Positions 15,021-19,449 of a DNA stretch of 64,000 nucleotides are shown here, one piece after another (positions within the stretch are counted from its first letter, which is position 1; each line of letters begins with the position of its first letter). The notes below the pieces were generated by a model that was not told the DNA's origin, searched no databases, and saw nothing but the letters and a program-made list of their open reading frames with translations. The DNA comes from Harriotta raleighana (Eukaryota), in contig JBNZDD010013510.1 in assembly GCA_050575255.1 (NCBI GenBank), forward strand, positions 297,636-361,635, in the 5' to 3' direction. The translations under genes and the position numbers were made by a program.

Positions 15021-16197
15021 CTGCCAAAAAAAAGAAAAATCAGAGAAAGAAANAAAGAAAAATCAGAGAAAGAGAGAAAACAAAATTTCTCTTGCAATCA
15101 AATACGGGCATATAGGACCTCTTANGAAAAATCAGAGAAAGAAAGAAAACAAAATTTCTCTTGCAATCAAATACGGGCATATAGGACCTCTTAATAAATT
15201 TTAGGTAGTAACACAAATTTTAAAAAGATGAATGAGCGTCTTAAAGTGCATGAGCATCTTTCTAAAATTCCATAAATTGATTCGTATTAAACTTGAAGCA
15301 GCCACTGAGACGATATCTGCAAGACAAGGTGATATTCCCTTCCTAAGATGTGATTTCAACATTACAGAAATGTTATTTTCACAGTGAAGTTTATAAATGT
15401 TATCCTTCAAACATTTCTTGGTTAGATGGATCCAGAAATGCCCCTGTAACACCCAAATGCTACAAATACTCTAATGCAGTAATATTATATTATTGTATTT
15501 GTTTGTATTTGTTTTTAGTGCCAATAGTGCATTGGATGGCCATCTTAAAGTGCTCTTTGCATTAGTATGAATATATTTTTTCTTTTTTTCCCCATTTGTT
15601 AAGTTCCACAAACACCATTAATTTTGTTTCAATTCACCTCATCAGTCACACAATGTGGCAAGATTTTCTCACTAAATTATGTTGATTATGTGTTAAATTA
15701 CCTTTTGTAAATTCCTTCAGCTTTCACAAACTAGTTTTGCAGATGTAACAATTCTGGCAGCAGCACTAAACACAGATGAATTAATACTCCATCCAGAAAT
15801 GTCACCCAAATTACGCTCAATAACATTGTCAGTGAAATGTGTAAAAGGTGTTAGGTCCTTGGTTCAATGTAAAACCTGCATTTTGTCAATAACAGTCAGC
15901 AACACAGTACAATGTTGAGTCCACAGTATTCCCTCTTCTCTTAATTTTACACAATTTCTATGTGCACATCCCAGCTCAGACTGCACTGTTCTCTGCTGCT
16001 GCCAGCAAAATGCAGCTGGTTGAGAACATTTGTGAAGCCCACAAAGAAAAACGACAATGAATAATAGCCAGTGTACACATGGAGTTGAAGCCCTGAAGAA
16101 TCAAGCATGTTGTTGCACATGCTGTACAATAATGTGACTGGAAATAAAACCAGTGGAATAATTTTATGGAGAAAACAGAAACACTGTAGATACTGTA

Positions 16198-16450
16198 TTA
16201 ATAATCCTTGCATTTGATATAATGCTTTAATGTCAAGAGAAAAGTGTTTTGCAGAGTTTTAGCGTAAAGTGTAGTGATTTTATAATGGAGGTGAATGCGT
16301 GGGCCAATTTGCATGCAGCAATATCCCACAAACAGCTATGAAGTGAATCATTAATGTCACCTGGTGGATTTGATGACCTGGACACTGGACAAAACTCCCA
16401 TCACTTTTAACGTAGCACCAAAGACAGGTGCTTCAGTTGAATTGTCCCTC
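16198..16450 (-). mobile_element. Old Deu-domain SINE fragment
   Basis: taataatccttgcatttgatat tail and gccaatttgcatgcagcaatatcccacaaacagc. Confidence 0.7.
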
Positions 16451-19324
16451 ACAGCTAGATCATATGTGACTCAAATTCTTGAAAATTGTGTAGTTTGTCT
16501 CTGGAGATTTAATTCAAATGGTTCCAGTAAATATGGAACAACCATTAAAGCTGAAGTGACTCCACCCACCCCCCCCCACACACCCCACCCTCCATAAGTA
16601 AGCTTTTTTTTGACTAATACTAAAATATTAGTTCAATCTTTGTAAATGGAGGAAATCACTACAATAAATCAATGCATTCAGATGCATTTTTTTTAAAAAT
16701 CACTGGATCATTCATGTTCCTGAAATAAAGATGAATTTTTTTTAGATAAAGTAAAAATCTCGCAGCAGGAACAAATAACACCTAATAAACTTTGAGACAG
16801 CTGACTCGTGTGAATTTGCTGAAATTCAATGAAATATTAGTAAAAGAATTATGGCGTGCAAATTCAAGGTGGTTCTCAGGGGCTGAAAAATTCACAATTC
16901 TTTTGAACTGAATAATTCTGTGTAAAATGGTTGATGAAGCAGTCATTCTGCCCTATTCAGATTCCCTCACTGTGCTGGCAGCAATGAAAGCTTTTTGTGG
17001 ATGAGCAGCTTAGCTACTCAGAGTGAAAACCATCTTCTCCAAACCAACGGCGTTTGATGTCAGCTTGCTGTCAGTGCACTCACGTGGGTTTAATCTGCAG
17101 TGTGCTCAAAAAAGGACCAACACAAAAGACTTCAACACTGGCCAGAAAAGAACAGCAGATTTATTATCAAAACACTGATCCCTTTCCTGTCAGCCACAAT
17201 TAAGCTGGTACCAAGCGCTGAAAGGAATTATTTTTCACCCTTCAGATGGAACGAAAATTTAAAACCTATCCCAACATTGAACTGTTGAACTTTTCAGCTC
17301 AAACATGTGACCAGGGGAGAGAGAGAGAAAAAAAAACCTGGTTAACTTTGCACTTTATTTGTAGTCTAGACTTTTGTCTAATGAAAGTCTAAAGAGTCTG
17401 AAACAAAGCATATTTCCGTTTGCTGGCATGCCATTATCTACCCCTGTTGGTTACTTGTTCAACCTAGGTCCTAGATCTTATTACTACTTTTTTTCCCCCC
17501 CCAATTCCCCTTTTTGTTTCAAAAGTAAATGATCGGTTTCACTTGCTGCCCGTTGCCAACAATGAATAAACATTGAGAAAGTCGAGAAATCATTATTGCG
17601 TAGCCTTGGTCGGAGAGAGCATTGAAGAGACAGTGTTAATCGTAATACAGTATTTTCACTGATCCGCAGAACTGTGTTCTCCACAAATAATTTACAAACC
17701 ATCAATATTGCGTTTTTGAAGCTGGTTAATTGGAACTTTAGCAATGTGAAAACTGCATTCAGAGGCTGAGATAAATGACAACACAGATAATAAAACATCA
17801 TGTAAGGTCTTTCACCTGGGAATTTAAACTTTTGATTTAACATTCCTGCCATATTTACTTTCACAACTGGAGATGTTAAGATGTGATTAGGTGCTGAATT
17901 AAATGCAAACAGTATTATGAATTTAACATTGCTACTTATCGTTTGACAAGAGAACTGAACAGGAGAAGCTTTAACCTCTTTCTCCTGAAAAGAAAGCTAA
18001 TACATCTACCCCCTTCCCGAATGTCCAGAGAATAACAAGGTTAAAAATGTCATCAACTCCCAAAGTTGTGGCTTTTCAAGATCAGATTAACATTCCAGGG
18101 TTAAACAGGCACCACATTCAGCTGGAGATATTGGTTAATTGAAGCCTGCATTGCAGAATTCCTGGCGTGAGCTCAAAAGCGATCTTGAGTCAAACTCTGC
18201 CAGAAGTCAGTCTGCACACGCTTGTAAAGATCATACCAGTATTACTGTATCCATGGTTCATTTGAGAAACCAGCACAGGGCTTAAGTGAANACCTACTGT
18301 ATCCATGGTTCATTTGAGAAACCAGCACAGGGCTTAAGTGAACGATACCAGGCAGGTGACAAATCAGCTAAGCCTGTCCCAATATCTGGATCAGTCTATC
18401 AGCCATGATTGGTCATAAGTGACTTGACGTTTTCGAATATCCCAGATTCTATTGTTTGACTCAAATGTGGCTCCTATTTGACTTGTCCACAAACGTTACA
18501 TCTCTTGATGTTCACATTGTGCCTCTGGGTGCACTGGGAACTGTTCGCACAGCTGCTCTCTGATGGACAGTGATATACCATATTGAGGTGACTTGTTTTC
18601 ACCACTTTATTTCCTTCTGCTCATCCAGTTGCATCTGAATTCCAGGTTTGGAGCCAACATTTTCAAGAAGCCTTTATTGTGGTAGCTTGGTTTTAGTGGC
18701 TTCACGTGAGGGTTGCTTTGGCTTCCATTAAATCTGAGCAGCAAATTATATCCGAACAAGTAAGTAAGAACCATGGATCCGTATGTCTCCTGAACATGCA
18801 TCATGGTGTTTTGGGATAACCTGGAATATCCATTTAACTCCTAATACAATGTGAGGAGCAATTGTTGTTTATTGTACGATACTCAAACTGTATCATTTGT
18901 CAACCTGACAATTTGGGACTTTTGTCAGGAAGTAGGTATAAAGTTACAATATTCATGTCAGGAATCACAGTTCCGTTTCTTAATGGTTTTCTTTAGGGAG
19001 GATGCAAAAGACTCTATAAAAGGCGCTACGTGCAAATTGGGAACAAGCACATTTGAAAATTTCTTTGCATATTGCAATGTTGCTGTTTGGATGCAATAGG
19101 AAGGTAAATAATCGAATTGTCTATTTTGAGCAACTACAGTTTATAGCTGCTTTGTGTTCAGAAATGAATTTGTTAAGCACAAATGGAAGATAGGACTTTA
19201 CATCTCCCGTGATTCAGTCAGAATTATCTCGTGTTACCAACACTGCTTTCACAATCAAATTGTAAATCGCATTCAAAAACGGATTTTAAAAGCACAATTT
19301 TTTTTCTTAGAACTGTAGTGTTTG

Positions 19325-19447
19325 GACACAAAACATACAGTTTTATTCACATTACATATGTTCTGCAAAGAGCTTTGAGTTGCCTTGAAGATGTGATCAG
19401 GCGCTATATCAAATGCAAGAATTATCAGTAATATTATTATTATTATT
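19325..19447 (+). mobile_element. SINE 3' fragment whose (ATT)n tail abuts the exon-3 splice donor
   Basis: gctttgagttgccttgaagatgtgatcaggcgctatatcaaatgcaagaattat...attattattattatt, matching the other SINE tails in the window. Confidence 0.8.
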
Positions 19448-19449
19448 AC

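Follow-up and report, generated by a model that had tools for sequence, protein, structure and literature searches.

A 64,000-nucleotide stretch of the Harriotta raleighana genome (the window; contig C13510, GenBank JBNZDD010013510.1) carries on its minus strand a paralog of CRIM1, here called B or CRIM1-B. The gene is a real, ancient domain-loss paralog. Very probably, B is an intact 14-exon gene of cartilaginous and ray-finned fishes that lacks the second of two Cys-rich modules (module 2) and the sixth VWC repeat (VWC6), likely stems from an early vertebrate genome duplication, and likely tethers growth factors of the BMP type at the membrane while lacking the integrin site of module 2. With flanking DNA included, the model comprises 910 codons without an internal stop and is 90% identical over 885 aa to Callorhinchus milii XP_007886308. 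A sequence-only reading of the window had recognized a CRIM1-family gene. Family membership stands on the IGFBP domain, the VWC and antistasin repeats, the transmembrane helix and the CRIM1_C tail; that the gene is a paralog beside a complete CRIM1 was missed.

The complete CRIM1 of this genome was found on contig C13533 by a genome search with exon 3. This locus is canonical: exon 3 is followed by exons 4 and 5 (121 and 122 nt), and the six VWC exons and the tail are all present, with exons 1-2 falling outside the DNA examined. Since this complete copy, exons 4-5 included, sits on a different contig, the window gene is a paralog rather than CRIM1 itself. The window gene also departs from canonical CRIM1 (clade A) by belonging to a separate clade, by having five VWC repeats instead of six and by encoding one Cys-rich module instead of two. 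The earlier claim of one module in place of two, with exon 3 retained, is borne out. In human 2p22, CRIM1 is linked to FAM98. FAM98 matches were found on C13533, together with canonical CRIM1, and on C13687, with none on C13510. Searches for FEZ and striatin matched other contigs only and gave no synteny for the window gene.

Eight exons of B lie in the window and sum to 1416 nt or 472 codons, which contain neither a stop nor an RGD; the recount agrees with the count given previously. Five further exons (VWC4, VWC5, stalk, transmembrane segment and tail) lie past the window start. The exons and the intron of interest are as follows, with window positions unless stated otherwise.

C13510:373873-374251, 12 kb past the window end: exon 1 equivalent, found in flanking DNA.
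57146..57313, minus strand: exon 2 equivalent, 168 nt, small Cys cluster after the IGFBP domain, AG/GT, phase 1-1.
19450..19692, minus strand: exon 3 equivalent, 243 nt, single Cys-rich module of module-1 type, AG/GT, phase 1.
15021..19449, minus strand: intron of 4429 nt at the site of canonical CRIM1 exons 4-5, no homologue found.
14838..15020, minus strand: exon 6 equivalent, 183 nt, VWC1.
13032..13229, minus strand: exon 7 equivalent, 198 nt, VWC2.
5594..5722, minus strand: exon 8 equivalent, 129 nt, antistasin-like.
3692..3845, minus strand: exon 9 equivalent, 154 nt, antistasin-like.
3029..3150, minus strand: exon 10 equivalent, 122 nt, antistasin-like.
503..721, minus strand: exon 11 equivalent, 219 nt, VWC3.

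Domain assignments come largely from the ortholog P0001, in which Pfam recognizes an N-terminal IGFBP domain (PF00219, 33.4 bits), five VWC and four antistasin stretches and the CRIM1_C tail (PF19442, 56 bits against a cut-off of 27.2). Exon 1 and the exons matching the VWC and antistasin stretches are present in this genome. The type I transmembrane helix was read from the sequence as a hydrophobic segment. Exon 1 is G-rich and encodes a Gly run after the signal peptide. At the N join at C13510:287537, about 130 nt of the VWC5 exon are duplicated directly behind the join, likely an overlap artefact like those in the intron described below.

Exon 3 joins exon 6 in frame as the sequence-only reading had proposed (19692-19450 to 15020-14838, AG/GT, phase 1), giving the product ...CCDVYECRS-E-ILRKC. 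Its second claim, that the intervening intron holds no exon 4 or 5, was examined by tblastn with module 2 of six CRIM1 proteins (two elasmobranchs, human, catfish, lamprey and hagfish) against 114 kb around the gene. No homologue of exon 4 or 5 was found in 15021-19449, where no match was better than E 0.29, while the same queries recovered both exons at the canonical locus (E 9e-7 to 3e-26) and matched exon 3 of the window gene at E 1e-13 to 4e-16. Among AG..GT phase-1 candidates in the intron with at least four Cys, 18 were found in three spots (near 18600, 16100 and 16000), and none had the CC/CxC pattern of the module. Fragments of a high-copy repeat occupy 16190-16350 and 19366-19445, the latter right behind the exon-3 donor, with read depths hundreds to thousands of times background.

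The intron contains three N joins, located as follows.

18245..18291: duplicated overlap and N join; an independent contig lacks both.
15053..15125: two N joins with duplicated flanks, within the pyrimidine tract; no listed contig bridges them.

An assembly artefact, in which exons 4-5 were dropped at such a join or placed on another contig, could draw on these three joins, two of them without a bridging contig among those listed. The flanks speak otherwise, since they are direct duplications at 18291 (51 nt, 3 mismatches) and 15125 (68 nt, 1 mismatch) and share a 22 nt pyrimidine tract at 15053. In an independent contig (number 6 of run X1), 18244 is followed directly by 18292 without insertion, hence nothing was lost at the join at 18291. 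Of the joins that the sequence-only reading had wanted checked, the one at 18291 is settled, and those at 15053 and 15125 are bridged by no listed contig. Across the genome, canonical exon 5 has three matches, namely itself and both exon-3 copies; all are accounted for and leave no orphan exon 5. Other assemblies supply 114 B-class proteins that share this junction. We regard an artefact as scarcely credible.

The short form is widespread. A survey of 447 proteins yielded 269 that could be classed (at least 700 aa and at least 55% identity over 300 aa to a reference core), with 178 dropped; the sets are redundant (isoforms, close species), so that the following counts are not independent. Class B comprises 121 proteins from chimaera, sharks, rays, sturgeons, gar and teleosts. 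None has two modules, 114 have one and 7 have none, and RGD is missing from the module in 121 of 121. VWC6 is absent in 115 of these 121 proteins and not scorable in the other 6. Class A numbers 148 proteins, of which 125 carry two modules and 132 carry VWC6. By Pfam, B has five VWC repeats versus six in CRIM1, and four antistasin repeats as in CRIM1. In the window gene, no VWC6 exon was found between the VWC5 and stalk exons, a site outside the window. Database annotations of the short form cover Callorhinchus, many sharks and rays, bichir (partial), sturgeons, paddlefish, gar and teleosts. Orthologs from Callorhinchus (XP_007886308), Heptranchias (XP_067847413), gar (XP_015206403) and medaka (XP_023807601) share the junction and the losses. 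The comparison with other vertebrates and lamprey suggested by the sequence-only reading extends the missing module to orthologs and exposes a second loss, that of VWC6, which had been overlooked. In addition, the Logan contig that encodes an 895-aa B protein of an elasmobranch is no longer than 5197 bases. A contig this short implies that the exon 3-6 junction occurs in a spliced transcript of another species.

Several proteins of the survey deviate from the common pattern. Predicted B isoforms from three elasmobranchs and two teleosts (P0014, P0017, P0034, P0055, P0059) skip the remaining module, which suggests that it is dispensable. Many ray-finned B copies (P0013, P0016, P0018, P0351) have an extra Cys cluster, a second one resembling that of exon 2, ahead of the module, unlike the window gene. 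Divergent and often truncated A-like proteins occur in Albula, Paramormyrops, Megalops and Arapaima (P0166, P0178, P0210, P0220) and are probably copies from the teleost duplication; the Albula protein has one module, of module-2 type. A tilapia B protein (P0025) is also labelled Mustela putorius furo in nr, likely a mislabelled record rather than a mammalian B. An unnamed CRIM1-like protein (P0167) has three modules.

The sequence-only reading left open whether the single module reflects loss or a state before module duplication. Loss is what the outgroups show. Hagfish, lamprey, the tunicate Phallusia, the echinoderms Antedon and Asterias, the annelid Capitella and nematodes all have two modules, which argues for an ancient loss of module 2 rather than a pre-duplication state. 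Invertebrate and cyclostome CRIM1 share the overall architecture of B but keep both modules, and VWC6 as well in those aligned. Outgroups carrying both elements set the direction of change, and B is shown to have lost module 2 and VWC6. The retained module of the window gene matches a module-1 profile at 96 bits and a module-2 profile at 62, with both halves favouring module 1; in teleost B, this signal is weak or mixed. Profiles built from eight invertebrate sequences only already separate the two modules and assign the window module to module 1 (87 versus 60 bits). That B keeps an ancestral one-module form, with the module duplicated later in CRIM1, would find a parallel in the single module of the sponge CRIM1-like protein P0063, whose orthology is only presumed. 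Such a scenario is very unlikely given the two-module outgroups, the profile scores and the grouping of B with vertebrate sequences (support of 98 in a quick tree, only 73/76 in a careful tree). We rejected the pre-duplication candidate on the two-module bilaterian outgroups and the module-1 score. Exons 4 and 5 (243 nt together) and the VWC6 block are each flanked by phase-1 introns, so that a clean deletion would keep the frame. The loss would fall on the stem lineage of B and so predate the divergence of cartilaginous from bony fishes.

Trees were built from the region between VWC1 and the tail, with the modules excluded, as a quick tree of 28 rows (19 of 47 left out) and a careful tree of 17 rows (30 of 47 left out), redundancy being among the reasons for omission. 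The careful tree recovers clade B at 100/100 and clade A at 95/97. Cartilaginous and ray-finned fishes are found in each clade, hence the duplication is older than the cartilaginous/bony fish split. In the quick tree, the window gene stands next to Callorhinchus. Gene neighbourhood adds to the picture. A scan of open reading frames over 200 kb downstream, on one side of the gene, named genes from 145 of 2314 candidates, including four ACOT-type genes, DCAF5 (E 9e-94), an alpha-actinin-like gene, a SOCS4/5-type gene (SOCS4 best, E 6e-92), WDHD1 and GCH1. ACOT, DCAF5, ACTN, SOCS4, WDHD1 and GCH1 are genes of human 14q22-24, a block that is probably paralogous to 2p21-22, the home of CRIM1. PMC7269912 describes parts of two chicken chromosomes, 3 and 5 (GGA3, GGA5), as copies of one ancestral linkage group, CLGA. 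These neighbours suggest a genome-duplication copy, and an early vertebrate genome duplication is the likely origin of B.

The retained parts of B hint at its function. Vertebrate CRIM1 shares with B the signal peptide, IGFBP domain, exon-2 Cys cluster, module 1, VWC1-2, four antistasin-like repeats, VWC3-5, transmembrane helix and CRIM1_C, as well as the same exon phases and near-identical exon sizes. Unlike vertebrate CRIM1, B has no module 2 (exons 4-5 with the RGD site), no VWC6 and a shorter stalk, and it forms a separate clade at a separate locus. The CRIM1_C tail has diverged (56 bits in B versus 255 in CRIM1). CRIM1 tethers pro-BMP2/4/7 and interacts with VEGFA according to PMC2698089, its BMP activity depends on the vWC repeats (PMC3299674 and PMC2698089), and its tail forms complexes with beta-catenin and cadherins (PMC3299674). 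A signal peptide, an IGFBP domain, five VWC repeats, four antistasin-like repeats, a transmembrane helix and a diverged tail may allow B to bind pro-BMP- and VEGF-type ligands as CRIM1 does, a prediction from the VWC repeats and the CRIM1 papers. The best solved-structure matches to the VWC repeats are BMP-binding VWC domains of chordin and collagen IIA (5NIR, 1U5M, 9RD6; E about 1e-6 to 1e-5), from secreted proteins with an architecture unlike B. The Cys-rich module has no Pfam family and no sequence match in PDB. A predicted model of two modules (predicted local distance difference test, pLDDT, 83.5; predicted template modelling score, pTM, 0.48) had no Foldseek match at E<=0.001, and the best hit of a structure search reached only Z 3.9 (MUC2 C-terminal domains, root mean square deviation 4.5, 67 residues aligned).

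RGD-dependent activation of beta-1-integrin and FAK, reported for mouse Crim1, would be absent in B. The single module of the window gene has EAT at the position of RGD in CRIM1 module 2. RGD occurs at the homologous site in Phallusia, lamprey and 79 of 148 A proteins; the motif is old, and B therefore probably lost an existing RGD together with module 2. Tunicate and lamprey CRIM1 differ from B in having this RGD. The contrast drawn by the sequence-only reading between B and an RGD-bearing CRIM1 holds for module 2 of the window gene and fails in two other respects. First, canonical CRIM1 exon 5 of this genome (C13533:1168517-1168648) encodes PGD, as does canonical CRIM1 in 3 of 3 cartilaginous fishes checked (this genome, Chiloscyllium and Hypanus). 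With PGD in canonical CRIM1 and no module 2 in B, neither copy has a module-2 RGD in the cartilaginous fishes checked. Second, exon 1 of B encodes an RGD.

The difference between B and CRIM1 might then lie mainly in ligand range, stalk length or tail partners, with RGD incidental and no signalling through a module-2 RGD by either cartilaginous-fish copy. We give this a little under an even chance. Beyond the PGD of the three cartilaginous fishes, the site reads HGD in a tortoise and a lungfish and RGN in some frogs, a module RGD is missing from 69 of 148 A proteins, counting isoforms, and B also lacks VWC6 and has a diverged tail. The motif's presence in tunicate, lamprey and 79 of 148 A proteins pulls the other way, as do its place in the predicted two-module model, where it begins the loop connecting strand 138-144 to strand 156-161, and the need for the mouse Crim1 RGD in FAK phosphorylation in cells, as given in PMC4725338. 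This alternative agrees with our preferred explanation on the origin of B and differs only over which change matters.

The exon-1 RGD might instead replace the lost site and let B still bind integrins. RGD is found at this site in the window gene, Callorhinchus and Pristis, and KGD in several rays and sharks. Other elasmobranchs have KGG, KGE or EGE, only 4 of 121 B proteins have RGD anywhere, and the site, flanked by conserved cysteines, corresponds to RNE or KNE in jawed-vertebrate CRIM1. We consider replacement improbable and the exon-1 RGD probably incidental.

Several points weigh against our reading of B as a genome-duplication paralog that tethers growth factors without the module-2 integrin site. 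The exon 3-6 junction in this species rests on genomic DNA, with no RNA run listed for the species, and the joins at 15053 and 15125 are bridged by no contig or joint listed, with reads near 15053 too shallow to judge. The redundancy of the survey affects the 121 B proteins. The first and second rounds of vertebrate genome duplication (1R, 2R) are not told apart by the tree, in which cyclostomes join clade A at 74/78, and an approximately unbiased (AU) test did not reject an A+B clade (p 0.148). Finally, the RGD at residue 83, in the IGFBP domain encoded by exon 1, could in principle engage integrins.

A conserved copy without module 2 and VWC6 amounts to a natural deletion construct for separating growth-factor tethering from integrin signalling. 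The gene is already in databases, where orthologs carry automatic names only ("CRIM1-like") and percomorph entries are usually plain CRIM1. Fish "crim1" entries, and hence quantitative trait locus, expression or knockout results, may concern a non-orthologous gene. Our literature searches found no published description of the paralog; subscription journals and supplementary ohnolog tables, outside the search, may list it. No basic principle is changed, as modular exon loss after gene duplication is ordinary.

The distribution of the two forms raises a tentative scenario, which we hold as possible while leaning against it. Early jawed vertebrates would have had two CRIM genes that were lost reciprocally, with tetrapods keeping only the long CRIM1 and percomorphs (medaka, fugu, cichlids, tuna) only the short B. 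No B of tetrapods or lobe-finned fish appeared among the named matches (all 63 of one search, the best 120 of 583 in another). No percomorph A appeared among the named matches listed, the plain CRIM1 entries there being B. Clade A proteins of Polymixia and Lepidogalaxias form long branches, and the Lepidogalaxias protein scored 1121 bits against a listing cut-off of 1109. The percomorph absence is therefore weak, and a divergent percomorph A could sit among the 463 unlisted matches. If reciprocal loss did occur, the "crim1" genes of medaka and mouse would differ in their domains and be paralogs hidden under one name, and B could act as a backup behind the viable zebrafish crim1 null. PMC11922885 describes zebrafish crim1 nulls as viable with incomplete penetrance. 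B is present in Danionella.

Directly downstream of the gene, at C13510:237700-277699, about four genes for acyl-CoA thioesterases (ACOT/BAAT-type) form a tandem cluster. Fragments of reverse transcriptase lie at L029:7226-7927, in the region of this cluster, and at L047:7948-8679.

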